Source: Escherichia phage Ecwhy_1
Direction: 5' to 3' (one strand)
Sequence record: MH791411.1
Length of the DNA stretch: 64,000 bases
A program made the translations under genes and the position numbers. This document shows positions 2,358 to 63,987 of this stretch, one piece after another; position 1 is the stretch's first letter, and each line of letters opens with the position of its first letter. A model generated the notes under the pieces. It saw only the letters and a list, made by a program, of their open reading frames with translations. It ran no database searches and was not told where the DNA came from.

Positions 2358-2599
2358 ATTTTTTTATCATCCGATTTTACATAATAGTAACATACAATGC
2401 AGTGAATTACAAGAAGAATAATTTCTACTACATTCAGTGCCACAACATGCCCTTGCGGGACCGTAAGTGACAATAACAACATTATAGTAGGTATTACGAA
2501 TATTGTCAATGTTTTTTTCATTTTATTTCCTTGTGGGACCATAAGTGACAATAACAACATTATAGTAGGTATTACGAATAATGTCCATGTTTTTTTCAT
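2354..2599 (-). CDS. small hydrophobic protein containing an in-frame 26-codon tandem duplication
   Basis: MKKTWTLFVIPTIMLLLSLMVPQG followed immediately by MKKTLTIFVIPTIMLLLSLTVPQG; matches the 78-bp DNA tandem repeat. Confidence 0.35.
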   Translation of the reverse strand: MKKTWTLFVIPTIMLLLSLMVPQGNKMKKTLTIFVIPTIMLLLSLTVPQGHVVALNVVEIILLVIHCIVCYYYVKSDDKKI

Positions 2600-2608
2600 T
2601 TTATTTCC
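2452..2608. repeat. tandem direct repeat, two copies of about 78 bp, near-identical by eye
   Basis: copy 1 about 2452-2530 and copy 2 about 2531-2608 share ...gggacc(g/a)taagtgacaataacaacattatagtaggtattacgaata(t/a)tgtc(a/c)atgtttttttcattttatttcc. Confidence 0.8.
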
Positions 2609-2832
2609 TTAATGTAGGCAAATGGTAAAAATACAACCTCTACCCCAGGAAATGCAGTTGCGAGTGCATCAACTATAGATTTGTTTTTATTACATTGCCA
2701 TACTTTTGTAACTTTGTGCTGGAATACCTTGCCATCTTTTACTAACCAATACATTTGCATTTTAACAGTACTGTTATCAGATGGTATTAGTAAATCTTCC
2801 ATATCATATGAATTAAAGATTCTCTCGTTCAT
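2596..2832 (-). CDS. hypothetical protein (78 aa)
   Basis: ORF track. Confidence 0.4.
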   Translation of the reverse strand: MNERIFNSYDMEDLLIPSDNSTVKMQMYWLVKDGKVFQHKVTKVWQCNKNKSIVDALATAFPGVEVVFLPFAYIKEIK

Positions 2833-3091
2833 ATAATCTCCTAGTGAAAAAAGCCAGATTCTTTCTTATATATTCGGCGACACAATCAGTAGTTTGTGTA
2901 TTTGTGAATGCAACAACTTCATTCGATACACCATTCCCATTACACAATGGACAAATCCCCATATACTTAGGTGTTGGAACTGTATCTAGTTTATATTTCC
3001 CTGAAGATATCATGTATTGTTGTGGTAATACATCCAAAGAAATAATATAATCTTCATCGAATTGCTTACAACATACCCAACATTTACTCAT
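2813..3091 (-). CDS. small zinc-finger-like protein (CWVCC ... CPLCNG)
   Basis: two Cys pairs in a 92-aa ORF. Confidence 0.4.
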   Translation of the reverse strand: MSKCWVCCKQFDEDYIISLDVLPQQYMISSGKYKLDTVPTPKYMGICPLCNGNGVSNEVVAFTNTQTTDCVAEYIRKNLAFFTRRLYERENL

Positions 3092-3575
3092 TGTGGTTCT
3101 CCTTCAAAACAATTCTTATATCTTCGAATGTTTTAACAAACCAGTCATGTTCATCAGATACATCAACCACCTTCCCACCATAAACATAGTAATGATAGAA
3201 GGGTAACTTACTTTTCCTCAATCGTTCAGCAAGTTCTGGGTTTTGAAATATCTTAGCACATATTGCATCCTGGATACAAGAAATGCATTCGGGTGTCATT
3301 TCAATACGGTCGTGCATATACTTGTTCGCCGCTGCTTTTGCAGCAGCACCCGACACTTTTCTAAGATCATCATGTTTCTGGCCTGTTAAAAACCAAAAAT
3401 AAAAAGTTTCTACCGATGGGAACCAACCGTATGGTTCTAAGGTAAAACTATGTGACGAAAAGTTAGATAGATCCCTACCTAACTTAGTTTTAGCTTTACT
3501 ATAGATATTAATGTGTCTGTATCCGTCATCAGTAGGGTCAATATAGTTAAATGACTCTTCAGGAAATTCAAACAT
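3084..3575 (-). CDS. NADAR/YbiA-like domain protein
   Basis: motifs resembling E. coli YbiA as recalled from memory: SNF...W.S.E..F...K...AAKAAANKY...NPELAERL. Confidence 0.4.
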   Translation of the reverse strand: MFEFPEESFNYIDPTDDGYRHINIYSKAKTKLGRDLSNFSSHSFTLEPYGWFPSVETFYFWFLTGQKHDDLRKVSGAAAKAAANKYMHDRIEMTPECISCIQDAICAKIFQNPELAERLRKSKLPFYHYYVYGGKVVDVSDEHDWFVKTFEDIRIVLKENHNE

Positions 3576-3577
3576 AA

Positions 3578-3931
3578 TTACTCTTCTTCACCAGATGGTG
3601 TACCACGCAGTTTATCAAAATCAACCCAAATACCATGCTGGTTTTTGAAGCGACATTTCTCATAGTACCAGCTATAGTCGGTTTCAACACCCTGAGAAAT
3701 TGAACGAACACTACAGTCATACATATTGTATAAATGTGTACGTACAATGAATGTTCCTATAAGAAGAACAAACACAACAATCCCAGTACAGATCTTTGGA
3801 TGATCCATAATTAGGTCCAACACAGAACTGGTTTCAGTACTATCAATTTTACTACGACCGATAGCAACAACTTTCAGTACTACTAATGATACCAGTAATG
3901 AAATAACAAGAACACTCAAATAAATTAGCAT
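3578..3931 (-). CDS. small membrane protein (two predicted TM helices)
   Basis: hydrophobic segments LIYLSVLVISLLVSLVVLKVV and IVVFVLLIGTFIV. Confidence 0.45.
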   Translation of the reverse strand: MLIYLSVLVISLLVSLVVLKVVAIGRSKIDSTETSSVLDLIMDHPKICTGIVVFVLLIGTFIVRTHLYNMYDCSVRSISQGVETDYSWYYEKCRFKNQHGIWVDFDKLRGTPSGEEE

Positions 3932-3933
3932 AT

Positions 3934-4518
3934 TTAGACTCCTACCCCAAAACGTAAAAGGATGTTATTAACAAACACAAAATCAAATGGAGACTTTGGT
4001 TCAGATACCGAGTACTGAAAAGTTTCAGTGGCAAAATTTTCCCTATTATGCCATGTTGATGAATCGATTAGTAATTGTTTATCACCAATTGACGTTGAAT
4101 GTAATGGGACGTGTGCTGATGAATTTATAGAATACGCATTTAGTTTTCCTTGTTCATCAAATGTAACACAAAGGTAATATCTCTTCTTAACATCAGGAGA
4201 ACGCTCTTTAATATACGAATATATTGATTCATTCAAATCATCATCATTCCTTGTCTTAGCACCGAGAACTTGAGCAAAAGACAAATTACGTTTCGGTTGG
4301 ATCGTTCCTGGTCTTTTTAGAATGAATTCTTTTGTTAAGTAAAAGTTATTGTGTTTTACCTCAATATTAACAGTTTTAAAGTTTGTGATTTTATCATATA
4401 CGTTCCTAAAAACTGTTATATCCCATGAACTAATTTCTTGCATCGTTACCGTAACTAGTTCTTCTAGTTCTTGGATAAATGGCAAATCGTCTTGATCAAA
4501 TCTAATCACAGTTTTCAT
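3934..4518 (-). CDS. hypothetical protein (194 aa)
   Basis: ORF track. Confidence 0.5.
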   Translation of the reverse strand: MKTVIRFDQDDLPFIQELEELVTVTMQEISSWDITVFRNVYDKITNFKTVNIEVKHNNFYLTKEFILKRPGTIQPKRNLSFAQVLGAKTRNDDDLNESIYSYIKERSPDVKKRYYLCVTFDEQGKLNAYSINSSAHVPLHSTSIGDKQLLIDSSTWHNRENFATETFQYSVSEPKSPFDFVFVNNILLRFGVGV

Positions 4519-5089
4519 ATACCTTTTTTAAATTCATAATTTCAAGAAGACTATATTCTTTTTCACTAATCAAATCTTCAGTGAGTGCTTCTGGTTCGGT
4601 GTTACAATACAACTTCCCATTAATGATAACATAACCATTGCTAAGATACAACGCACTCATTATCTGTTGTCCTTCTTTTGCATTGACTGCTATACCAGAA
4701 TTTGTTACAACAAGCCCATTGTTTGCAAATGCTGATGTTAGTTCCGACCATTCAACTGATATTAAATCACGATAGTCTTTTGATACTTTTATAGTAACAA
4801 TACAAGCAACTCGTGTAATAGATGGAGTACTAATCGTATACATCTGTGGGTGTTGGTAGTTTGAGTTATATGTTTGTGGTGTATTAACAGCAGTTCCTGA
4901 ATTCGGAGTTGTTGGCATAATTACTTGATCCATATTTGGAACAGCCGTTCTTAGTGATGCAATACGTCCAGTTTCATCCAATTTCAAAACTAAACGATGA
5001 GTTTTATCCTCAGAGTGATACGGGAATAGACCACCGGAATTCATATTTTGAAGCATTTTAATTAATTCATAAGTATTTTTTAAAAACAT
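4502..5089 (-). CDS. hypothetical protein (195 aa)
   Basis: ORF track. Confidence 0.5.
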   Translation of the reverse strand: MFLKNTYELIKMLQNMNSGGLFPYHSEDKTHRLVLKLDETGRIASLRTAVPNMDQVIMPTTPNSGTAVNTPQTYNSNYQHPQMYTISTPSITRVACIVTIKVSKDYRDLISVEWSELTSAFANNGLVVTNSGIAVNAKEGQQIMSALYLSNGYVIINGKLYCNTEPEALTEDLISEKEYSLLEIMNLKKVYENCD

Positions 5090-5136
5090 AATAAATCCTA
5101 TAGAAAATGGGAGTACAATGTACTCCCAGATTTAGA

Positions 5137-5691
5137 TTATAGTTTAATTACTTCTTGGATACCAGTATCCATTGCTTTCTTAGTGCGTGTATCAGAAACT
5201 ACTGTACATAAATGTTCAATATTTTCACTTGGGAATGTGTTAGTATCAAGAATTTTGGAGTTCCAGAAACCTTTACGGAACTTAGCATAATCAGTACACT
5301 GGTCAATTTTCATTTTCTGAAGATTGTTGAACTGTGTACGTCCTGACTCGATAGTTACCATAAGTTCTTGATAAATCTTAGGATCGAGATTAGGAACCTG
5401 TTGTTGAATCTGTGACATCACAAACTTCTGGTCAACACCTTCACGACCTTTAAAGTATGTTTCGATGGTTTCTTTCAATGCATCCTTATACTTATCAGAA
5501 ACTTGTACTTTTTCTTGAATGACAAGAGTGTATTTACTTAGTTGACTTTCTGATGCATCATAGTACTTTTTAATATTACCTTCAAATTCAACAGCACGGT
5601 CATGTGCATCTACATACATACTAACTGAACCAATTGCCATAAGACCGAATACAACAACAACACCAATCAATGCAATAATTTTACCATTCAT
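5137..5691 (-). CDS. LemA-like membrane protein
   Basis: N-terminal TM helix; C-terminal ESGRTQFNNLQKMKIDQCTDYAKFRKGFWNSKIL resembles the LemA-family C-terminus as recalled from memory. Confidence 0.45.
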   Translation of the reverse strand: MNGKIIALIGVVVVFGLMAIGSVSMYVDAHDRAVEFEGNIKKYYDASESQLSKYTLVIQEKVQVSDKYKDALKETIETYFKGREGVDQKFVMSQIQQQVPNLDPKIYQELMVTIESGRTQFNNLQKMKIDQCTDYAKFRKGFWNSKILDTNTFPSENIEHLCTVVSDTRTKKAMDTGIQEVIKL

Positions 5692-12167: not shown

Positions 12168-12794
12168 TTATTGGTAATATTTCGACAGTACTGAATAGAT
12201 TTTTAAACGTAGTTCATCCCAGTTGTTAACATAGTCATACCCATAACCATTTTTATACATATGATTGTGGGACGCTCGCATCATAACTGATGGGATACCC
12301 AATTCCATTGATGTTTCAATATTATTGATATAATCATCAATCATCAGTTTTACGTCATATCGTTCTTTTAATTCTACTAGTGCTTCATGCTTAGATTCAT
12401 TCATTTCAACAATGATGATTTCATCAAAACATGTCTCACCAAATACATGCATAAGATTAGTATTGCGAAGTACCTCGCTATAACCTTTCTTACCACACTT
12501 AGTCAGTACTATGAATTTTTCCTTGTAAAAACGATCACGCAGTTCATGCATAATACTTACAGTGTTAGTTTCTACAGGTTTTAGTAATCCAAACATATAC
12601 GAACGTTGATTGAATTCAGTAATGATCTCTTGAACTTTTTCTCGTGAAACACCAAACCATTCAGATAAATCGTATGCGAGTGGGTATGGTGTTGTTGGGT
12701 TGATATCATATTGGAGTTTTGCGTATTCTCCTAATGAACCAATGTGATCTAGTAGTACTTCATCACAGTCGAATACAATACAACGGTCTTTCAT
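12168..12794 (-). CDS. HAD-superfamily phosphatase, possible 5'(3')-deoxyribonucleotidase
   Basis: motif I FDCDEVLLD (DxD) near the N-terminus and LMIDDYINN (DD) later. Confidence 0.45.
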   Translation of the reverse strand: MKDRCIVFDCDEVLLDHIGSLGEYAKLQYDINPTTPYPLAYDLSEWFGVSREKVQEIITEFNQRSYMFGLLKPVETNTVSIMHELRDRFYKEKFIVLTKCGKKGYSEVLRNTNLMHVFGETCFDEIIIVEMNESKHEALVELKERYDVKLMIDDYINNIETSMELGIPSVMMRASHNHMYKNGYGYDYVNNWDELRLKIYSVLSKYYQ

Positions 12795-13747
12795 TACATG
12801 TTCCCCGAACAGATTAGGTCAATCTCACACAGTAATGCACTGAGATTCATTTCACGGTCAGACACAGTAGCTTGTTTAACAACAGCGTCACGAATCTTAA
12901 CCTTAATTTTCATTAGAGTAATTTCATCAGTACTGAACATTTCTGCATTACGATACAGATAAGAGAAGAATGCATCCATCTCATCATCAGGAATGTTTTG
13001 CACGATCTGCTCACGCATTTGACGAATGTTACCAGCTTTTAGTGCATCAATAATGGCAGTACGATACCCAGCAGAGTTCTCAATACTGTCTTCTAGTTTT
13101 ACAAGTTTACCATCGACTACTGAACTTTGCAATACGTTTAGCGTTTTGCGGAAATCAGGATATGAAGCATTGATGTATTTTTGTACTTGTTCAATACTTT
13201 CATCAGTACTTAGATCTACTCCTTCTGCCAATAGTACGTTGTAGATGCGTGACATGAATTGTTCCATATCATGCTTCTCAATGGTGATGACCTGAACACG
13301 AGAGATAATAGGTTTCTGAATCTTATGTGGTTCATTACTGGTAAGAATGAAACGAGCATTTTCATGGTAATCTTCCATGACACGTTTCAAGCTACCCTGT
13401 GCTTTGTGGTTCATTTGTTCCATTTCTTCCAGAACAAATACACGATAACGACCAAAACATGATAGTTTTGCTGCTGCATCAATTTTGTCACGAACAGCAT
13501 CGATACCTTCATCTGACATATTCAGTGTTGTTACATCACTAGGGTCAAGGTGTCCGTTAGCTTCCAGACCATTCAGTAGTACTTTGATTGCTGAAGTTTT
13601 TCCTGTCCCTGCTGGTCCAAAAAATCCAATATGTGGGATATCACCAGTACGAATCCATTCTTCCATCTTCTGACGTAGGGCTTCGTTCTTAGATACATAA
13701 TCTTCCATAGTTTGTGGGCGGTATTTTTCAGTCCATAATGTAGTCAT
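12794..13747 (-). CDS. 44: clamp loader large subunit (RFC-like AAA+), gp44-like
   Basis: EKYRP RFC box, Walker A GPAGTGKTS, Walker B region VFVLEE, SRV/SRC-like sensor; length 317 aa similar to T4 gp44. Confidence 0.8.
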   Translation of the reverse strand: MTTLWTEKYRPQTMEDYVSKNEALRQKMEEWIRTGDIPHIGFFGPAGTGKTSAIKVLLNGLEANGHLDPSDVTTLNMSDEGIDAVRDKIDAAAKLSCFGRYRVFVLEEMEQMNHKAQGSLKRVMEDYHENARFILTSNEPHKIQKPIISRVQVITIEKHDMEQFMSRIYNVLLAEGVDLSTDESIEQVQKYINASYPDFRKTLNVLQSSVVDGKLVKLEDSIENSAGYRTAIIDALKAGNIRQMREQIVQNIPDDEMDAFFSYLYRNAEMFSTDEITLMKIKVKIRDAVVKQATVSDREMNLSALLCEIDLICSGNM

Positions 13748-14837: not shown

Positions 14838-15356
14838 CTACCATTTCAAAAATTCATTTACATCTAGTTTATACTTCAAAGAATCAACCATATGCAAATC
14901 AATCAGGAACAAACAATACGAAGCCACTGAACTACCACGCCCAAGACCCCAAAAAATATTGTGCTCTTCCATATAATCAACTAACCAGATCATACATCTT
15001 AAAAGCTTAGTCATGTTGTAATGTTCAAACAAATCAATCTCATACATTACACGTTCACGGGCTTCATCCGATGTACATTTCTGTAAAAAGTACTCACGCA
15101 AGTTGATGTTATCGTACACTGGATCATAACGCCATAGTTCATGGTTTTTATCATGTTCTATTGTATAATCCAGCATACGCTGTTCTAAACCAAATTTTTT
15201 ACAATTATCGTTAAATTTCAATCGTTCCGGTTCATCAATCTCCTGTAGCTGTAAGTACTGAATATCTGCACCACAGTTGATTGCATACACGACTGCATTA
15301 AGGTTACATTTTACATCACCATTGGGACTTATAAATCTGTTTCCTTGTACTTTCAT
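14838..15356 (-). CDS. family-C DNA polymerase (Pol III alpha/DnaE-type) palm, N-terminal fragment ending before the catalytic DxD
   Basis: YEIDLFEHYNMTKLLRCMIWLVDYMEEHNIFWGLGRGSSVASYCLFLIDLHMVDSLKYKLDVNEFLKW aligns by eye to DnaE ...ELDVIIQMGFPGYFLIV...[36 protein letters not shown]. Confidence 0.55.
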   Translation of the reverse strand: MKVQGNRFISPNGDVKCNLNAVVYAINCGADIQYLQLQEIDEPERLKFNDNCKKFGLEQRMLDYTIEHDKNHELWRYDPVYDNINLREYFLQKCTSDEARERVMYEIDLFEHYNMTKLLRCMIWLVDYMEEHNIFWGLGRGSSVASYCLFLIDLHMVDSLKYKLDVNEFLKW

Positions 15357-42498: not shown

Positions 42499-44019
42499 TT
42501 ATTTCCTTTGATTTAACCATTGCTTCATTGCATTTACACGATCAGTACCAATGTGAGGCTGTTGAGGCTGGGATTCAGTTTGTGTAGAAGTGATTGGATC
42601 ACTATCTGTATTTAGTGTTACGCTTTCAACACTTGATGTAGTGCTTGGTTTAGGAGCACCAGAAAGCGTATGACGCAGTGTTTGCATTGTACTTGGTGGC
42701 ATTGCCATGTTACCACCGCCTACCTTAGAGATACCACTGTGACGGAATCCTGACCCATCAGTTTCTAGTTGTTGGATTGTTGTTGCATGGTCTAAAACAC
42801 GAAGTGAATCAATATCGTAAGACATACGCAAACGTGAACCAACTGCACTACTGTTACGTGTTTTCTGGAAGTCAAACCAAAGTTCGCCAGTTTCTTTACG
42901 TGCTTCAATGTAGATAACGTTATCCGCAGTATAGATTTTAGAAATACCACCAGCAATCTGACTTTGACTTTTCTTATCTTCATCCATACCACTACGGTTA
43001 AACTGTGACGCAGTGAATACGGTCAAATCCATTTTGGTTGCTAGTGCACGCAATTCTTCAGATACAAATTTATCTTTTGTAAATGTATTAGATTTATCAT
43101 TAGGACCAAGACGATTTGATGTTAATAGGTCAAGGTAGTCCACACAAACATAATCTAATTTGACTTCCATTTTAATTTGCAATTCACGAAGATAACTTTC
43201 AATATCATCAGTGGTTGTTACGGATTCTGGTAAACGTTTAATACGCAATATACCACTATCCTTACCTTCCATTTGAACTCGTAGACCAATCTTTTCAGCT
43301 TCGTTCTTAACGTTACTTAGCTTAGATTCAGTCATCATACCATAGATACGAACGGCTACCAACTCTTCTGCTAGTTCTAGTGAAATGTATGCACCATTCA
43401 TACCAGCCTTAGCAAAGTTAACTGCTAAGTTCTGTAGTACTACTGATTTACCACCACCAGACGCTGCTGCAAAGATTTCAAGTTCACGGCGACCAAAACC
43501 ACCGAATAGTTTATAGTCAAGGGTTTCCCATCCACTCTTGAATGAACCTTGCATAGTGCTCAATGAACGAATGGTATCTTCTGGATTTTCAAAGATATCA
43601 AGACCCAACTCATTCTGTACAGATACTAACATAGCTTCACGAATGAGTTCTTCGATGCCACCATATTTTTTCTGATGTACTAATTCCATACCTTTCTCTA
43701 CTGCTAGAGCTAGAGCTTTGTGACGGCAAAACTCACTACAGGTATCCAGTACTGCCTGTTTATGAAGTTCTTGTACTTCATACTGATCATACTGATAACC
43801 ACCTTTCACTTCGATATCTTTCAGTGTAGGGGATGAACTATATTTTGCTGCATAATCATGAACGTACTGAATACTTTCATGAAATGTTTTATCAAAATAT
43901 TCTGGCTTTAGAATATTTTTACAACGTACAAATAAATCTGGATTACTGAAAACTTGGGATAGTAAGTATTGTTGTGCATTAATCCCATACTGTTTGACGT
44001 CCACTGTGCTTTGAATCAT
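42499..44019 (-). CDS. 41: DnaB-family replicative helicase, gp41-like
   Basis: Walker A AAASGGGKS, ISLELAEE, Walker B VCVDYLDLL, arginine finger region TASQFNRSG. Confidence 0.85.
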   Translation of the reverse strand: MIQSTVDVKQYGINAQQYLLSQVFSNPDLFVRCKNILKPEYFDKTFHESIQYVHDYAAKYSSSPTLKDIEVKGGYQYDQYEVQELHKQAVLDTCSEFCRHKALALAVEKGMELVHQKKYGGIEELIREAMLVSVQNELGLDIFENPEDTIRSLSTMQGSFKSGWETLDYKLFGGFGRRELEIFAAASGGGKSVVLQNLAVNFAKAGMNGAYISLELAEELVAVRIYGMMTESKLSNVKNEAEKIGLRVQMEGKDSGILRIKRLPESVTTTDDIESYLRELQIKMEVKLDYVCVDYLDLLTSNRLGPNDKSNTFTKDKFVSEELRALATKMDLTVFTASQFNRSGMDEDKKSQSQIAGGISKIYTADNVIYIEARKETGELWFDFQKTRNSSAVGSRLRMSYDIDSLRVLDHATTIQQLETDGSGFRHSGISKVGGGNMAMPPSTMQTLRHTLSGAPKPSTTSSVESVTLNTDSDPITSTQTESQPQQPHIGTDRVNAMKQWLNQRK

Positions 44020-44045: not shown

Positions 44046-45101
44046 TTACATCCACTTATCCGTTTGTGCTTTAATATAGAAAGGCTCGTCAACTATACTA
44101 TCATGTATCAGTTGTAAACAAAATAATCTTCCAAATCTAGCACATGCTTCGTCAAAATCTTTAATGTGACGTATAGTACTTCCAACACGTACTGCCCCAA
44201 AATCTGGGAAAGAAACACTAAATCCATATTCTAGTGCTTGTTCGATTGTTTGTAATCCATCCTTATCACGGTCTGGTACGATAACAATCTTTTTACCTTT
44301 TTCTTGTGCAGCTTTAAGTACATCTATTTGTACTGCTGACAATTTAAAGTTATTTGCAGAAACACCACCCATTAGTGCTGCATCCATTGGACCTTCACAA
44401 ACTAATATAGTTTTAATTCGTTCATCTTGTAACAGATCATAATTATATAGAATATTAGTACTGACCTGATTAATAAAACGATAGGTACTTCCTGGGTCTT
44501 TAAGTTTGTGTCTAGCAGTATATCCGATAATTTTACCGTTCATAACGTATGGTATGATAAATCGGTCATACATTTTATGTTCTTTAGCTGGACTCCAATA
44601 CAATTCTAAATCTAATAGATATGGATTTCGCTCATTCACATGATTCAGAACACTAATAAATTCTTGTGGTATTTGCTCTTCTGGTAACGATGCCCATTCC
44701 CAGAATGTTTTTGAGTTCGGTGGTAATTCACGAACAGTTACACGTTGATATAGTTTAGATGCAGTAGTTTCTTGTTCTGCAAAGTCTCCACTATCAACCA
44801 TTTCTTTAATGTAAAATTTAGCTAGTTCTATTTCCTTATCCTGTGCACCAAAAGAAATGAGCAAAGACTCCATATCTTTGCTCATATATTTTCCAGGTTG
44901 CCACCCAGTTTTTAGACTACAGTTAAAACAGTTATAAGAAACAGAACCATCTGCGTTAAACATATGATTGCCGCGATTTTTAGTATCGGGGCGTGAATGA
45001 CCACGGAACACACAAGCAGGACAATTGTGATGTGTCCACATACCAATTCCTGGTACTGGGTCATTCATGATTTGTGCCATGATGTTTTGTACAGCGTTCA
45101 T
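44046..45101 (-). CDS. 61: DNA primase (zinc ribbon + Toprim), gp61-like
   Basis: CPACVFRGHSR...CFNC zinc ribbon, Toprim motifs CEGPMDA and VPDRDKDG; directly upstream of the helicase as in T4. Confidence 0.85.
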   Translation of the reverse strand: MNAVQNIMAQIMNDPVPGIGMWTHHNCPACVFRGHSRPDTKNRGNHMFNADGSVSYNCFNCSLKTGWQPGKYMSKDMESLLISFGAQDKEIELAKFYIKEMVDSGDFAEQETTASKLYQRVTVRELPPNSKTFWEWASLPEEQIPQEFISVLNHVNERNPYLLDLELYWSPAKEHKMYDRFIIPYVMNGKIIGYTARHKLKDPGSTYRFINQVSTNILYNYDLLQDERIKTILVCEGPMDAALMGGVSANNFKLSAVQIDVLKAAQEKGKKIVIVPDRDKDGLQTIEQALEYGFSVSFPDFGAVRVGSTIRHIKDFDEACARFGRLFCLQLIHDSIVDEPFYIKAQTDKWM

Positions 45102-45156: not shown

Positions 45157-46135
45157 TCACCTGCGAATCAAAATTTTAGGAACTGACAGTAGTGGGTCAT
45201 AGACTTTTCTTACTGCCGCATAGTCATAAGGAACTGGAACGATCTTAGGATGAATACAAACAACCAATCGCAACCACATGTAATTACCTTTAAAATTAAA
45301 TGCTTGAATCCCATCTAACGCTTTAGGGAATCCATTTTCATCAATATCATTTTCGATATATTCTTTACCATCCAATTTAACAATAAACCATTTATAGTTT
45401 TCGTTATCAGTTGGTACGTTATTACACAAACATCCTTGTAATTGAATTCTACCAATGAATTTATCAAAGTACATTGCAATAGTACTAAGACCATCAACTA
45501 ATCCGTACTGCATTTGTGCAGGAAGGGGAGATGTTGCCATTATATCAAATTCACCAATAACGCCACGAGCGATTGGTTCATGATACAAGCGTTTGATGGT
45601 AGTCCATGCTGGGTTTTTATTAACAGATACTTCAATACTTGGCACAAACACAGGAGCAGCTTGGTCGGAAATGATCAATTCAGCAGAGGCTTCATAATCA
45701 AGACCAGTGTATAAGTACTGTGTAGGTTCAATCAAGGAACCATCCATTGTTACTTTAGTAATACTCCATCTATATTTTGAACCAGGACTAGTATCCTGAA
45801 TTACACCAGCAGGAACAATACATCCATAATATACTTTTTTACTATTACCTAATGTTTGTCTTGCTTGTCCACTTTCTGATAGCCATGATGGTTTTTGTTT
45901 ATCCAAAACTACATCGAATAATTTAGTATTGTTTCTAGCATCAAAAATCATGAATGTTAGATATTCGTTATCTTTTAGTAATGTATATTTTCCATCAGCG
46001 TTATGCACTGTGAATGATAAATTGTTATTTGCACCTCTGTATATTGTAAGTTTCTCATTGCTATATGGCATATTAAAATTGCCCAATGATACTTCTTGGT
46101 TATAAGGGTACATAAACACGCCGTGATGAGCCATA
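45157..46135 (-). CDS. hypothetical protein (326 aa)
   Basis: ORF track 45157..46368; start moved to MAHHGVFMYP, which has AGGAA upstream; the longer N-terminal extension is low-complexity. Confidence 0.45.
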
Positions 46136-46191
46136 GTTTTTCCTTCCATAAATAATAGGTATAAATTTATACTAATATTTATGGAACTCAT

Positions 46192-46545
46192 ATGAATCAA
46201 TATAATACTATTCCACCATTTATCACGGTAGTTCAGTGTGATGGTAAAACTTTCATTGGTATTATCAAGATAAAAAGTAAACAGTATACTACTCTTTACT
46301 GCTTTGATGATATGGATGAACCAATGCAAGATGAATTGTTGGGTATAGCACATGATTGGTGGTGGCAAAGCAACAGGTCAATTCCAGTCTGTCTATTCTT
46401 CCAAGAAGAGATGGAGAAATTTGAACCTTACACACAGAGATTCGATACCCCTGCGGTGAATTTCGTTTGTGGTCCAGTAGTTTCTTTAAGTGATTTGCCA
46501 CAAAAACGCATCAAGCGTCGTAATGTGGCTCTTAAGAAGAAGTAA
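46192..46545 (+). CDS. hypothetical protein on plus strand (117 aa)
   Basis: plus-strand ORF filling a gap in minus-strand coding; TATAAAT motif at 46158-46164 upstream; ends overlap convergently with 46532..47170. Confidence 0.4.
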   Translation: MNQYNTIPPFITVVQCDGKTFIGIIKIKSKQYTTLYCFDDMDEPMQDELLGIAHDWWWQSNRSIPVCLFFQEEMEKFEPYTQRFDTPAVNFVCGPVVSLSDLPQKRIKRRNVALKKK

Positions 46546-47170
46546 GATGTTCAACTAAAGCGTTAAGTTGAACTACAATCATTAAGCTGTATGCATAAGC
46601 ATGTGGCTTTTTGAAATATCGTAACTTATTTCCTGCTTGGTCTGTGCCAATAGTACTGTAATCCCATATAGTGGATTCAACTTCACTCCATGTATTCATA
46701 CTTTGGCACTGCCTTTTTCCAGGACGAATCATTGCAATAAACATTGCAAGTTCATCAATGGATTTAGGTTTCCACACATTTAATAATGTAACATGTTTTT
46801 TAATCTGTGAAAGATGTTCAACTATTTCTGGTTCTAACAGAAGATCCCAATTAGGTTCCTGATTCATTAGTTCTTTTAAATGTGCTCTATCACGAACATA
46901 CTGGTAAGCCGATTGTGACAGGATATCTACCTTTTGATATCCCAAGCGTTCGGCTTCTTTATATTGTATGCTGGCTAAACCAGTGATAGGGTCAATTGGT
47001 ATATTATCAAAATGAACACCACTGTTATGGGGGATTAAACCATCCTCCGTAATTTTTTCTGTACTTCGCACACAAGGAAGCTGTGCAATCACTGACTTAC
47101 TATCTTTAAAGTCAATGTCGATATCTGTTCGTGCTTTACGGTACGAATTAGAATTTGTCGAATCCTGCAT
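46532..47170 (-). CDS. family-C DNA polymerase (Pol III alpha/DnaE-type) palm, C-terminal fragment starting at the catalytic DIDIDF
   Basis: [11 protein letters not shown] ~ DnaE [29 protein letters not shown] ~ [35 protein letters not shown] ~ DMIALVALFRPGPLQ; thumb region apparently absent. Confidence 0.55.
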   Translation of the reverse strand: [212 protein letters not shown]

Positions 47171-47477
47171 TTTTGATTTGCTCCTGCAATTTGTTTACAG
47201 TGTTAGATAATTTGGTTACCTGATTTTCTAACATTGTACACTTTTGTTTGGTCTTTGACAACTCTTGACTTAGACCAAAGAATCTTTCCTCATGTCTTTC
47301 AACCATACTGATAATTTTTTCTACACGAACAGGATCGTGCACCTGAAAGGTTTTACCATCAAGTGTAATTTCAGTTATAGAACCCTGTCTAAGCAATGAT
47401 AAAGATTTAGATTTATCTGCTTTAGGCACAGGTACATACCCTTCTGGTATTTTATTATATATACTTTTTCCATTCAT
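47148..47477 (-). CDS. hypothetical protein (109 aa)
   Basis: ORF track. Confidence 0.45.
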   Translation of the reverse strand: MNGKSIYNKIPEGYVPVPKADKSKSLSLLRQGSITEITLDGKTFQVHDPVRVEKIISMVERHEERFFGLSQELSKTKQKCTMLENQVTKLSNTVNKLQEQIKNAGFDKF

Positions 47478-48184
47478 AATCCAGCCTCACGTAGCATACT
47501 TTTTATTTCATCACATTCCTTTTTGTACTTTATAGTTTTAACCTCAAAGTAACTAGGATCAATGTATTTAAGTATATACTCGATTTCAGAGTTAGAGAGA
47601 TTCTTGAAAAACTTATTAGTACTTTCTTTTGGTGCTAACCAGATAATCCAAGGTGAAATCTTACCACTCTCAATCCATGCAATTGCACGGGCAGAACTCA
47701 CATTGGAAAAAAACTTATTCCACTCCAAGTTCAGATTCTGACCCCATTCCACCATCGCAACAACACTACGGGAAACCGCAGCATTGGGAGATTCAGAACG
47801 AATACAATCTAATATCCATTCATCCTTTGCTTTATAAGTACTCCATTCCATAATAGGACGGTTTCTTACAATTAGACTTTTCACAAAACCATCAATATCT
47901 AAAATATCACGGTTGTTCAAATAATAAATTGCAAAATCATAAAAATCACTAAAGTACTTTGATTTTATAAAAGCCATTAATGGTTCAACTCCCTTCTTGA
48001 AAGGGAAATGGTTTAACTCCATGAATTGCATATAAATGCGAAAAGCCTCCCTCATGGGGCGGCTATCACGATCTTCGTAGCGGTCACGTTTAACACACTT
48101 ATGTGTGTTAACTGTGTCTTCGCGTTTAAATTCTTTATCACAGAACTTACATTTGTATACGGGACTACTTGATTTCTTTGCCAT
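47474..48184 (-). CDS. hypothetical protein with N-terminal C2H2-like zinc finger
   Basis: YKCKFCDKEFKREDTVNTHKC. Confidence 0.5.
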   Translation of the reverse strand: MAKKSSSPVYKCKFCDKEFKREDTVNTHKCVKRDRYEDRDSRPMREAFRIYMQFMELNHFPFKKGVEPLMAFIKSKYFSDFYDFAIYYLNNRDILDIDGFVKSLIVRNRPIMEWSTYKAKDEWILDCIRSESPNAAVSRSVVAMVEWGQNLNLEWNKFFSNVSSARAIAWIESGKISPWIIWLAPKESTNKFFKNLSNSEIEYILKYIDPSYFEVKTIKYKKECDEIKSMLREAGL

Positions 48185-50004: not shown

Positions 50005-51489
50005 TTATCCCGCTGTATTTTCCCAATCCTTAACATCTATGATACTATGAGGATATTGTGCTTCCTTATAGTATTGTAAACGTTCACGTAAGTGTTTTGC
50101 ACTATATTTGTTTGTACCACTGATATCAAAGATTTCCACGTGGTCTTTGTCTTCTGCACGACGCAACCCACGACCAATGGACTGTATTGTACGAACGAAG
50201 CTTTTTCCTGGTTCGATTAGAACGACATTATACAAACGAGAAATACTGATACCAGTACTTGCTACCCCATAGGTTGCAATGAGTATTTTGTTATCAGCCC
50301 AGCGAATTTCACCATATGAAGATTCACGGTCTTTCTTTTTGGTTTCCCCACGAACAAATTCTGACTTAGGAATACCCAAAAATTCACAAAGCAATTCACC
50401 AGCTTCAAGTCTATCAACCAGTACTAAAGTGTTTCCAGATTCTGCTAACGCACCTATCAGTGATGCTACATATGCCATTCTATCACGGTCAGTAACTAAG
50501 TACTTCAATTCTTCTGCATATGACGCGAACTTTAAATTACTTTTAAGTTTAATACAGTTCACATTACATGTGCTTAGTATTTTTTTATCTTGTAATTCTT
50601 TAGCTGTGATTTTAAATATCACATCACCAACGTTACATTTAATCTTCGCAGCGACAACTTGGTCTTTAGGGATTGTACCAGTTAATCCCCAGCGAAGTGG
50701 GACGTTATTCATAACTTTAGAGAGTACTTGAACTAATGCATCACCACCAGCACCTTGACACTCATCGACAATCACACAAACCACACCATCAATAAAGTCA
50801 TGAACGTCTTGTTCAGTCAGTTCAATTTCACCTTTCTTTGTTTTCTTCCACAAAGAGTTGAATGACTGCCATGTAGTGATTGTGTGTTGGTGACCAAAGT
50901 CTTTCTGTGCACCATAGAACACTCCAGTGTCAAGACCACACATAACATAGTCATCATATGTTTGCTGCACCAAATCAGTACTAGGTACGATAATCACAGA
51001 ACGTCCATACTCTTGTACCTTCTTGGATAATGCCGCTGTGATGAGCGTTTTACCAGCCCCTGTAGCTGCTAATAATAAACCATGTGGGTTTGCAAGGCAA
51101 GCATTAACTGCGTTCACCTGATGCTCTCTGAGCTTGATTGACTTACCTTCCATGTGGTGTCCAGCACCAAACACAACATCACTAAAAATATCTTCATCAA
51201 TTGGTTCAAAATTGAATCCATAATTGACACGATGATCTTCAAGTTCAATATCAATTTTTGCTTCATCTAAGATTGGCAACAACTTATCCAACATGTGGTA
51301 GTAAGTACTGCCACCTAAGTTCATAAACTGTACCTTACCATCCCAACGACCAATACGACCAGCAGGGGTGAACTTAGCGTATGGAAGTACATATTCTGTT
51401 GCACGAATCATCTTCTGACGAATTGAGGGATCTAGTCCCTCAAATTTACAATTAACCTCGTCCAGTAAGGTTAGCTTACAAGTTTTCAT
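50005..51489 (-). CDS. uvsW: UvsW-like SF2 DNA helicase
   Basis: N-terminal RIGRWDGKVQF (as T4 UvsW RYGNWDGRIRL), Walker A ATGAGKT, DEAD-like VDECQ, motif VI QSIGRGLR. Confidence 0.85.
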   Translation of the reverse strand: MKTCKLTLLDEVNCKFEGLDPSIRQKMIRATEYVLPYAKFTPAGRIGRWDGKVQFMNLGGSTYYHMLDKLLPILDEAKIDIELEDHRVNYGFNFEPIDEDIFSDVVFGAGHHMEGKSIKLREHQVNAVNACLANPHGLLLAATGAGKTLITAALSKKVQEYGRSVIIVPSTDLVQQTYDDYVMCGLDTGVFYGAQKDFGHQHTITTWQSFNSLWKKTKKGEIELTEQDVHDFIDGVVCVIVDECQGAGGDALVQVLSKVMNNVPLRWGLTGTIPKDQVVAAKIKCNVGDVIFKITAKELQDKKILSTCNVNCIKLKSNLKFASYAEELKYLVTDRDRMAYVASLIGALAESGNTLVLVDRLEAGELLCEFLGIPKSEFVRGETKKKDRESSYGEIRWADNKILIATYGVASTGISISRLYNVVLIEPGKSFVRTIQSIGRGLRRAEDKDHVEIFDISGTNKYSAKHLRERLQYYKEAQYPHSIIDVKDWENTAG

Positions 51490-51504: not shown

Positions 51505-52323
51505 TTAATTAGTTCGAGTATTATATTCGTACTCAAATGTATATACTAAATCTTTATCACAGTTTGGGTTACTTGCATCAAGAATATCACTGTTAGTAAT
51601 CATCCATTCAATATAGTTCAATGGAACAGTTTCCATTGGTTCGCCTTTGTGTTTACCAAATGGCATGAATTTATAACGCATTGGTGTATTACAGAATGTT
51701 ACGATTTGTTCACCAATGTCACCATTAGGGTCAATATGTCCACGTTCAATCGCAACTTCAATCAATTTGATTAGAACTTGATAACACATAAACACGTCAT
51801 CTTTTGCTGCGTGAGCATTGACTGCACGATGTACATCACGATAGCAACCAAATTTATACCACAAATAACTTAGAGTTAAGTTTTTAAATTCAGTGTCTTC
51901 TGCAAACATCTTCTTAGCTAAACGAAGGGTACAAATCCATTTATCTTCATCGAGCAAGTACTGCGAAACTGAGTTACGATATTTATATTCGTTATCTACC
52001 ATCATTCGGCGGTCAAATTGAACGTTGTGTCCAATAAAATAATTACGACACCCCATTAGTGCGTCAATGTTTTCTAAGTCATCTTTATAACCAATACAGT
52101 TTGCTACATCTTCAGTACTGATAAAATGCACAGCACTTGCTTCTGGTGGTATATCTTTTAGTGGTTTATAACGCAAAGTGTAGTTATCAATAGTATCAAT
52201 ATTCTCATGTGCATCGTGAGGATATGAAATACTAAATTCAATAATATCATCTTCACTTTCGACACCAGTTGTTTCGGTGTCTAGTACTGATACGTTTGAT
52301 AGGAACTCATCTAATTTTGTCAT
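51505..52323 (-). CDS. DnaQ-like (DEDDh) 3'-5' exonuclease, ExoX-like with C-terminal KHKG-containing extension
   Basis: LDTETTG, GHNVQFD, HRAVNAHAAKDD, C-terminal FMPFGKHKGEPMETVPLNYIEWM. Confidence 0.65.
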   Translation of the reverse strand: MTKLDEFLSNVSVLDTETTGVESEDDIIEFSISYPHDAHENIDTIDNYTLRYKPLKDIPPEASAVHFISTEDVANCIGYKDDLENIDALMGCRNYFIGHNVQFDRRMMVDNEYKYRNSVSQYLLDEDKWICTLRLAKKMFAEDTEFKNLTLSYLWYKFGCYRDVHRAVNAHAAKDDVFMCYQVLIKLIEVAIERGHIDPNGDIGEQIVTFCNTPMRYKFMPFGKHKGEPMETVPLNYIEWMITNSDILDASNPNCDKDLVYTFEYEYNTRTN

Positions 52324-63255: not shown

Positions 63256-63987
63256 TTAGCAACCTGTTACGTAAATCTTGTATACCGCAATACCAGTGTC
63301 TAGAGTTACGTTTAGCATACCAGTTTTGGTAATACCTAGGGTAACAGATTCTGCGTTAGAAACGCGGGATAGAGCTTGTAGAACACGGTCAATGTTATAA
63401 CCAAAACCAAGACCTAGTTCACCTTCAGTTTTAGAGAATGCTAGTGCACCAACGTGGTTACTTTTGTTCTTCTCACCAACGTGGAAGTAAAGAGTATCAC
63501 CTTCAGTGTATGGAGTTACTAGAGAACTGAAAGATTTAAACACACCAGAGAAGCTTTTTAGTTCCTGAACTTTAGCTGCACTAGGTGTAACCTGTACGTC
63601 ATATGGTTGTTCGTGGAAACGAGGCTGGGCTGGAATTAGTTTTTCTGGTTGAACCATGAAAGTAGTACTTGCATCTTCTGCTTTGAATGCTAGGCTCTTA
63701 ACTGCACCATCTTTCAAGTTAGAAGTGATAGTAGTTCCTTCAGTACTATAAGTTTTTAGAGACATTAGACCCTGTAGAAGACCTAGGTTACCAAGACCAA
63801 AACGACCTTGAACTTCTGGTACGTCTTCTTTAGTGTGAGCACGCATAACTAGGGTGCGGTCATCGGTGTATGCTTCCATGTAAACACGCTGTCCATCACC
63901 ACGGTCTTCACTGCTAACTGCGATACAAGAAAAGTCGATGCCGTTGGTAGTGTTAACTAGGTCACGTAGTACGTTGCGTAGATCCAT
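63256..63987 (-). CDS. 45: sliding clamp, gp45-like
   Basis: N-terminal MDLRNVLRDLVNTTNGIDFS resembles the start of T4 gp45 (from memory); about 240 aa; clamp genes otherwise absent from the window. Confidence 0.6.
   Translation of the reverse strand: MDLRNVLRDLVNTTNGIDFSCIAVSSEDRGDGQRVYMEAYTDDRTLVMRAHTKEDVPEVQGRFGLGNLGLLQGLMSLKTYSTEGTTITSNLKDGAVKSLAFKAEDASTTFMVQPEKLIPAQPRFHEQPYDVQVTPSAAKVQELKSFSGVFKSFSSLVTPYTEGDTLYFHVGEKNKSNHVGALAFSKTEGELGLGFGYNIDRVLQALSRVSNAESVTLGITKTGMLNVTLDTGIAVYKIYVTGC

Follow-up and report, generated by a model that had tools for sequence, protein, structure and literature searches.

The closest described counterpart of the gene studied here is the split minimal Pol III alpha reported from group 2.2 jumbo phages by Iyer, Anantharaman, Krishnan, Burroughs and Aravind in 2021 (Viruses 13:63, PMC7824862). 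In that system, distant genes encode an N-terminal unit that binds nucleoside triphosphates (NTPs) and a C-terminal unit that binds Mg2+ and template. Synthesis of one strand, or repair, was suggested as its role, and the phage form was proposed as ancestral (PMC7824862). A 172-amino-acid (aa) 'truncated' Pol III alpha, which corresponds to the partner discussed below, had already been noted in the CBB paper of 2017. The subject of the present work is the open reading frame (ORF) 46532..47170 on the minus strand of a 64,000-nucleotide stretch of Escherichia phage Ecwhy_1 (MH791411.1), hereafter the window. We consider it likely that this ORF encodes the C-terminal subunit (C-half) of a two-polypeptide minimal DnaE-type core of Rak2-like 'group 2.2' jumbo phages, and that this core serves as a short-patch polymerase. 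The N-terminal subunit (N-half) is the product of 14838..15356.

The window pair shares with the system of Iyer et al. the protein family, a Rak2/121Q-like phage as carrier, the arrangement as a distant gene pair and the accompanying family B polymerase. There is no essential difference between the two, and the window pair is a member of that group (phrog_11127 and phrog_11778). Both halves are called DNA polymerase in PHROGs and in several GenBank/RefSeq records. The split mini Pol III reading, which the first-pass annotation of the window had put forward, is correct in its core and already published. What is new here relative to Iyer et al. is a residue map, estimates of how much of the thumb and of the fingers is deleted, a correction concerning the fingers, and fused relatives with a model of the joined core. 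To these we add the ratio of nonsynonymous to synonymous substitution rates (dN/dS), the presence of the family in a 141-kb non-jumbo phage, and interruptions of full-length phage DnaE genes at the DxD site.

The split-intein DnaE of cyanobacteria is likewise a family C polymerase made from two distant genes. In cyanobacteria each half bears part of an intein and trans-splicing yields one full-length protein, whereas the window pair is split at a different site and contains no intein sequence. With E. coli Pol III alpha (DnaE1, 1160 aa; PDB 2HNH and 5FKW; Taq 2HPI) the pair shares the Pol-beta-like palm, the GS loop, the counterparts of D401/D403/D555, D405 and K553, and, in the C-half, the fingers motifs RPG and FNKSH. 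Unlike E. coli DnaE1, it lacks the PHP domain, the thumb (about 78 aa), the (HhH)2/clamp-binding motif, the OB domain, the tau-binding C-terminal domain and about 80 aa of the fingers. It also consists of two polypeptides whose genes lie 31 kb apart, and it shares its genome with another polymerase. PolC and the DnaE3 of Thermotogae indicate that a shortened thumb is tolerated in active family C enzymes (PMC3919608). However, in these the loss is confined to a helix-loop-helix of about 40 residues and all other domains remain, while in the window protein a beta-turn replaces the whole thumb.

The gene and the motifs on which the comparison with Pol III alpha is built are as follows.

46532..47170, minus strand: gene for the C-terminal subunit of the putative split mini Pol III, 212 aa, ATG start; it holds the beta-sheet of the palm, including the catalytic carboxylates, and a reduced fingers module
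47111..47125, minus strand: DIDID motif; contains the catalytic pair D16 and D18 (E. coli D401 and D403) and D20, equivalent to the DnaE-specific D405
47018..47029, minus strand: HNSG motif, on the strand after the site of the missing thumb; H48 is E. coli H511 and G51 is G514 (hhalign)
46925..46933, minus strand: KVD motif; K80 is E. coli K553, and D82 is the third catalytic Asp, D555
46715..46726, minus strand: RPGK motif of the fingers, E. coli R639-P640-G641; R149 is R639 and P150 is P640; within the stretch of Pfam PF17657
46601..46615, minus strand: FKKPH motif of the fingers, E. coli F756-N-K758-S-H760; K188 is K758 and H190 is H760; followed by a long C-terminal helix

The product of 46532..47170 matches phrog_11778, 'DNA polymerase', over residues 10-211 with an E-value (E) of 2e-106. 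Taken alone, it gave only a sub-threshold match to DNA_pol3_finger (PF17657, E 0.04) in Pfam, and phmmer with the single sequence found no match in PDB. A smaller profile of 26 C-half sequences reached only E 1.6, and hhalign against E. coli DnaE alone returned the correct register at low probability. Because these single-sequence, 26-sequence and lone-DnaE comparisons were weak, a more diverse profile and a small DnaE alignment were needed. With a family profile of 101 C-half representatives (pairwise identity under 50%), the PDB search gave significance for Pol III alpha chains only: Taq at 1e-5, E. coli at 3e-5 and M. tuberculosis DnaE1 at 7e-5. The match consists of three colinear stretches, namely E. 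coli 398-417 (DiDiD), 539-641 (profile consensus 'aeelgyfKiDlL...LAxxlAliRPa') and 754-767 ('yfKKshAiaYAl'). Profile-profile comparison by hhalign of 98 standalone C-halves with a small DnaE alignment (E. coli 396-800 plus two phage DnaEs) yielded a probability of 94.6% and E 6.8e-8, and added the strand PHNSGV, equivalent to KHAGGV. The AlphaFold (AF2) model of the C-half is a soluble alpha/beta fold with a mean predicted local distance difference test (pLDDT) score of 91.9, and the best 11 Foldseek matches to it are all Pol III alpha. Taken together, the significant matches in the profile, profile-profile and fold comparisons were confined to Pol III alpha/PolC.

Within these alignments, GYQKVDIL of the C-half aligns with GLVKFDFL of E. 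coli, and AMIRPGK with ALFRPGP at residues 636-642. The register of DIDID is anchored through a fused homolog, P0184 (described below), aligned to E. coli 319-417. D16, D18, K80, D82 and P150 are invariant across the 101 representatives, and D20, H48, G51, R149, K187 and H190 are at least 90% conserved. D401/D403/D555 are absolutely conserved throughout family C (Timinskas et al. 2014, PMC3919608), and D405 is specific to DnaE, with Asn at the same site in PolC (PMC3919608). Since D20 is the counterpart of D405, the C-half reads by its sequence as DnaE-like rather than PolC-like. A MAFFT E-INS-i register that placed the H48 strand on E. coli 443-469, at the start of the thumb, was rejected on account of the hhalign result, the conserved H-x-x-G-V and the predicted hairpin topology. 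The first-pass annotation had proposed four motif correspondences to DnaE (DxD, HNSG, KVD and RPG) and the retention of all three catalytic aspartates. The four correspondences hold in the hidden Markov model (HMM) or hhalign alignments; D16, D18 and D82 map to their DnaE counterparts, and the profile alignment confirmed both their positions and their conservation.

The spacing of these residues indicates what has been lost. D18 and D82 are 64 residues apart, compared with 152 for D403 and D555 of E. coli, and D18 and H48 are 30 apart, compared with 108 for D403 and H511. About 78 residues are therefore gone at the thumb insertion site. The thumb of E. coli DnaE reportedly comprises residues 433-510, as Lamers et al. 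are said to have described in 2006. In the AF2 model a beta-hairpin (34-41/44-53) has a two-residue turn where the thumb would insert. Deletion of the thumb, as originally proposed, is thus borne out by both the shortfall of about 78 residues and the tight modelled hairpin at 41-44.

The fingers call for a correction, as they had been described as absent and the C-half as palm only. Residues from about 90 to 212 align with E. coli fingers residues from about 560 to 645 and 745-785, with FKKPH on FNKSH at 756-760. PF17657 is matched by 62 of the 101 family representatives (best E 2.5e-7), and both RPG and FxKxH are kept. Judged from these alignments, the C-terminal 120 residues or so are a cut-down helical fingers module, which the C-half holds in addition to its palm. 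R149 and K188 are separated by 39 residues, against 119 in E. coli, so that about 80 of the roughly 120 fingers residues between RPG and FxKxH are deleted. According to hhalign, the last residue of the C-half corresponds to about residue 785 of E. coli, in agreement with the earlier statement that the clamp-binding and OB regions are missing. Pfam and NCBIfam searches found no match to PF02811 (PHP) or to (HhH)2/clamp-binding/OB domains in either half.

The GS loop is not within 46532..47170 and would be supplied in trans by the partner gene.

14838..15356, minus strand: gene for the 172-aa N-terminal subunit, which holds the N-terminal helices of the palm and the triphosphate-binding GRGS loop; 31 kb from the C-half gene on the same strand
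14931..14942, minus strand: GRGS motif of the partner, E. coli G361-R362-G363-S364; R140-G141-S142 are R362-G363-S364

The partner matches PF07733 DNA_pol3_alpha (E 5.8e-9) and phrog_11127 (E 4e-85), and NCBIfam DnaE models match as well. R140, G141 and S142 are invariant in 40 sequences. The N-half family comprises 110 clusters, mostly standalone proteins of about 155-190 aa, nearly all of which contain PF07733. With GRGS and the Asp triad both mapped to E. coli, pairing with 14838..15356 completes the GS + DxD + D set, as had been proposed. When the two window halves are concatenated, the PF07733 match spans the junction and improves from 5.8e-9 to 2.5e-11. The last residues of the N-half, EFLKW, are homologous to E. 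coli E389-L392, and the C-half has 15 residues before DIDID. The profile, hhalign and fold comparisons agree with the proposal that the C-half represents the C-terminal part of a family C core that is split, and starts just before the DxD strand. Both halves are found in the same phage groups in the match tables that we sampled. In the five phages that were compared they form separate genes at distances of 14-116 kb (44 kb in PA5oct, 116 kb in SCTP-2), and the spacing of 31 kb was also measured in the near-identical fEgEco12.

Rare metagenomic relatives, four in all and located on short contigs, carry both parts on a single chain. Three of them, P0184, P0380 and P0381 (375-376 aa), each have a contig of their own, and the fourth is P0263 (336 aa). 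P0184 is complete inside its 2.4-kb contig, and P0381 lies at L003 1066-2193. The N part of P0184 matches the window N-half (E 2e-24), and its junction between the two parts reads ...EFIKDNKEGIYNIADFDIDT. Its alignment with E. coli DnaE 319-417 runs in a single stretch across GRGS and DFDVD (E 3.5e-6). The nearest relatives of the C part of the fused proteins are standalone C-halves (51-59% identity), and P0263 has Glu at the position equivalent to D405. We modelled the joined core on P0184, using an alignment of the 4 fused sequences, 36 N-halves and 24 C-halves whose register was checked. The model reached pLDDT 89 and a predicted template modelling (pTM) score of 0.86, and the junction loop is the sole low-confidence block between the parts. 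From the P0184 model, the joined core is therefore predicted to have the architecture of a Pol III palm plus part of the fingers, with the gene break in a surface loop.

Three further records deserve mention. In MH494197.1 (Escherichia phage CMSTMSU, a close relative, 229549-229962) the N-half match extends over only 81% of the query and falls at two separate positions, which suggests a frameshift or a sequencing error in the record. P0394 (551 aa) and P0393 (540 aa) are short PHP + DNA_pol3_alpha proteins that match the fused form weakly. The end of its contig may truncate P0393, whereas P0394, on a 16-kb contig, could represent a further type of split or truncated DnaE.

The C-half family is large and conserved. 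Clustering at 90% identity gives 789 groups and clustering at 50% gives 512 representatives, most of the top-listed ones of about 180-220 aa, and members occur in phages of Enterobacteria, Pseudomonas, Xanthomonas, Stenotrophomonas, Vibrio, Salicola and Alishewanella. Compared with phage 121Q, the C-half gene has dS 0.76, dN 0.034 and dN/dS 0.045, and it is under strong purifying selection. The Alishewanella phage vB_AspM_Slickus01 (141.6 kb, not a jumbo phage) has a 203-aa C-half member at L005 19884-20495 with similar local synteny. Slickus01 also has separate 'DNA polymerase' genes at 2558-5196 that resemble a two-piece polymerase, which rules out the mini Pol III as its sole polymerase. 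An N-half adjoining the C-half in Slickus01 was also rejected, as the adjacent ORFs are not PF07733.

The conservation and the predicted structures suggest that the pair would be enzymatically active, and a possible division of labor can be drawn from the residue map. The C-half would bring the Pol-beta-like palm beta-sheet with D16, D18 and D82 and the adjacent K80, together with pared-down fingers. The 172-aa partner would bring the preceding palm helices and the GRGS loop, which might hold the triphosphate of the incoming nucleotide as in Pol III alpha. Because the chain appears to be broken in a surface loop that links the GS helix to the DxD strand, non-covalent association of the two proteins would be required to form a single active site at their interface. 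There, D16, D18 and D82 would bind two metals like their E. coli counterparts, and the reduced fingers may contribute the conserved RPGK and FKKPH motifs, whose role is putative. As the thumb, PHP, clamp-binding motif and OB are missing and about 80 fingers residues are gone, distributive, poorly processive, short-patch synthesis would be expected unless other phage proteins compensate. Beside a T4-like family B replisome, such an enzyme could serve in gap filling, in repair or recombination synthesis, or in one specialised replication step. A short-patch DNA polymerase alongside the family B replisome is the most likely role of the pair and the one we favour. If active, the pair would be the smallest family C core, with about 380 residues in two chains and no thumb, PHP or clamp-binding region. 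It would then inform the catalytic minimum of a bacterial replicase, and would bear both on the question of an ancestral phage form (Iyer et al.) versus reduction from a full-length gene and on the reason why T4-like jumbo phages retain a second polymerase.

Several points weigh against a short-patch polymerase. The thumb and the roughly 80 deleted fingers residues normally contact the primer-template, and a mini Pol III that lacks the thumb and much of the fingers may bind DNA poorly alone. The phage already encodes a complete family B replisome, which leaves no obvious reason for a further polymerase. Near the split point, no residues could be clearly matched to E. coli R390 and R396. The model of the joined core depicts P0184, which is 31-36% identical to the window halves, and not the window's own complex, and we found no biochemical or genetic test of a split mini Pol III in the literature. 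In addition, the genes directly flanking 46532..47170 on both sides carry virion structural protein annotation. The main rival to the polymerase is an active nucleotidyltransferase of the Pol-beta fold without templated synthesis, such as a terminal or tailing transferase, an RNA or primer extender, or a nucleotide maker directed against host defence. The loss of the thumb, of the 80 or so fingers residues and of all processivity and clamp modules would suit such an enzyme, as would the presence of a full family B replisome. On the other hand, the fingers motifs that are kept, RPG and FxKxH, are specific to family C and nearly invariant, and both genes sit within replication and recombination modules in distant phages. 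We regard this alternative as unlikely.

The extreme shortening relative to the 1160-aa DnaE, the label 'truncated' that the CBB paper gave to the partner, the structural annotation of the neighbours and the name 'putative membrane protein' in some GenBank records might instead suggest a decaying dnaE remnant of host or phage, or a non-catalytic structural or regulatory protein that keeps the fold. The dN/dS of 0.045 argues strongly against this, as do the 512 clusters at 50% identity, the invariant catalytic Asp and Lys residues in the 101 aligned sequences and the conservation from enterobacterial phages to those of Pseudomonas, Xanthomonas, Vibrio, Salicola and Alishewanella. The soluble alpha/beta fold of the AF2 model disagrees with a membrane protein as well. 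We consider a remnant or structural protein very improbable, and the earlier statement that the gene is not a decayed remnant stands on the low dN/dS and the intact catalytic residues. Even less credible is the joining of the halves into one polypeptide by a split intein (a 'fractured gene') or by trans-splicing. This idea draws on related jumbo phages in which polymerase genes are fractured by split inteins or homing endonucleases, e.g. PolB of MIJ3 and SCTP-2, and on full-length phage DnaE genes interrupted at the same site. However, the N-half ends at EFLKW without an N-intein of about 100 aa, and the C-half, in the 15 residues before DIDID, has neither intein block F/G nor an HN+Cys/Ser/Thr junction. 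Where the N-half ends and where the C-half starts, the sequence is directly homologous to contiguous DnaE, with a linker of about 17 residues, and many family members begin M-DIDID.

Full-length DnaE genes of other phages may bear on the origin of the split. In Clostridium phage CS266P1 (L009 2532-3770, 3960-4448 and 4574-6100) the full-length DnaE gene is broken at the DxD-coding site: the first ORF ends ...SRFMRKEKKKLP plus 11 aa, an I-HmuI-like HNH endonuclease gene comes next, and then an ORF starting MDIDVDF. In Bacillus phage vB_BceM_WH1 (L008 2460-3815, 4540-5460 and 5864-6658) three ORFs are called 'Pol III alpha', the first of which stops just past PDVDTD. These DnaE genes are probably intron-containing or endonuclease-split. 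Like the window pair, they are interrupted at the DxD-coding site, where the window C-half begins 15 residues before DIDIDF. Unlike it, they are full-length, with PHP, thumb, complete fingers and adjacent pieces. As full-length phage DnaE genes are broken at the same DxD site, the shared break suggests that the split in jumbo phages may have originated by mobile-element fission. A wider proposal, which we hold to be possible but rather doubtful, is that a mobile intron or homing endonuclease split a phage DnaE at the DxD codons and that the thumb-less heterodimer is a working second polymerase that borrows phage proteins for its lost domains. Candidate stand-ins would be the zf-C2H2 neighbour, the DnaQ-like exonuclease and the gp45-type clamp. 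If both fission and a working heterodimer are true, the pair would be the smallest functional family C polymerase core.

Both halves are located in replication and recombination modules, and the other features of these modules in the window are listed below.

12794..13747: AAA+ clamp loader, 1.1 kb from the N-half gene
42499..44019: DnaB-like helicase, near the C-half gene
44046..45101: primase, named from the annotation of the near-identical fEgEco12
47474..48184, minus strand: 236-aa protein (phrog_11058) whose N-terminal part is a C2H2 zinc finger; its gene lies just upstream of that for the C-half
50005..51489: superfamily 2 (SF2) helicase, near the C-half gene
51505..52323, minus strand: DnaQ/RNase T-like 3'-5' exonuclease (PF00929, E 1e-14), about 4.3 kb and five genes from the C-half gene
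63256..63987: clamp, named from the annotation of the near-identical fEgEco12

Genes for RecA/UvsX, gp32 and a 5'-3' exonuclease are encoded further along from the C-half gene, and the gene for the 1001-aa family B DNA polymerase of fEgEco12 would fall about 0.5 kb past the window end. The homolog of the 51505..52323 exonuclease is annotated as Pol III epsilon in phage CBB. Bacterial epsilon docks on the PHP domain, and an interaction of this exonuclease with the mini Pol III is uncertain because the latter has no PHP domain. The zf-C2H2 protein 47474..48184 may be an accessory partner of the C-half; its product had no match in PDB and NCBIfam outside the zinc finger itself. A homolog (30% identity, E 4e-36) directly adjoins the C-half gene in Pseudomonas phage Paride, and in Slickus01 a zf-C2H2 protein is encoded two genes upstream of the C-half. 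The order helicase ... zf-C2H2 protein, C-half, ... primase, DnaB recurs in Paride, and a looser version of it is found in Slickus01.

The window comes from an E. coli jumbo phage of the Rak2/121Q-like type. Over the 4 kb that surround 46532..47170 it is 99.6-99.8% identical to phages BF17, WPEC5, EC.P1, fEgEco12 (99.7%) and others, and 82-83% identical to 121Q and PBECO4. The guanine-plus-cytosine content of the gene is 36%, the same as that of the genome, and an AGGAG Shine-Dalgarno-like motif lies about 10 nt 5' of the start codon. Its start overlaps the 109-aa gene upstream by 23 nt, and the gene is the last member of a chain of overlapping minus-strand genes that runs from 49010 to 46532. 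A plus-strand 117-aa ORF, 46192..46545 (phrog_11637, E 6e-55), runs towards the C-half gene, and the two overlap by 14 nt at the C-half stop. At this place the annotation of fEgEco12 has a 70-aa minus-strand ORF, and that of 121Q has an opposite-strand gene. For the 403-aa minus-strand ORF 45157..46368 the PHROG match starts only at residue 79, and its true start is therefore probably near 46135, clear of the plus-strand gene 46192..46545.

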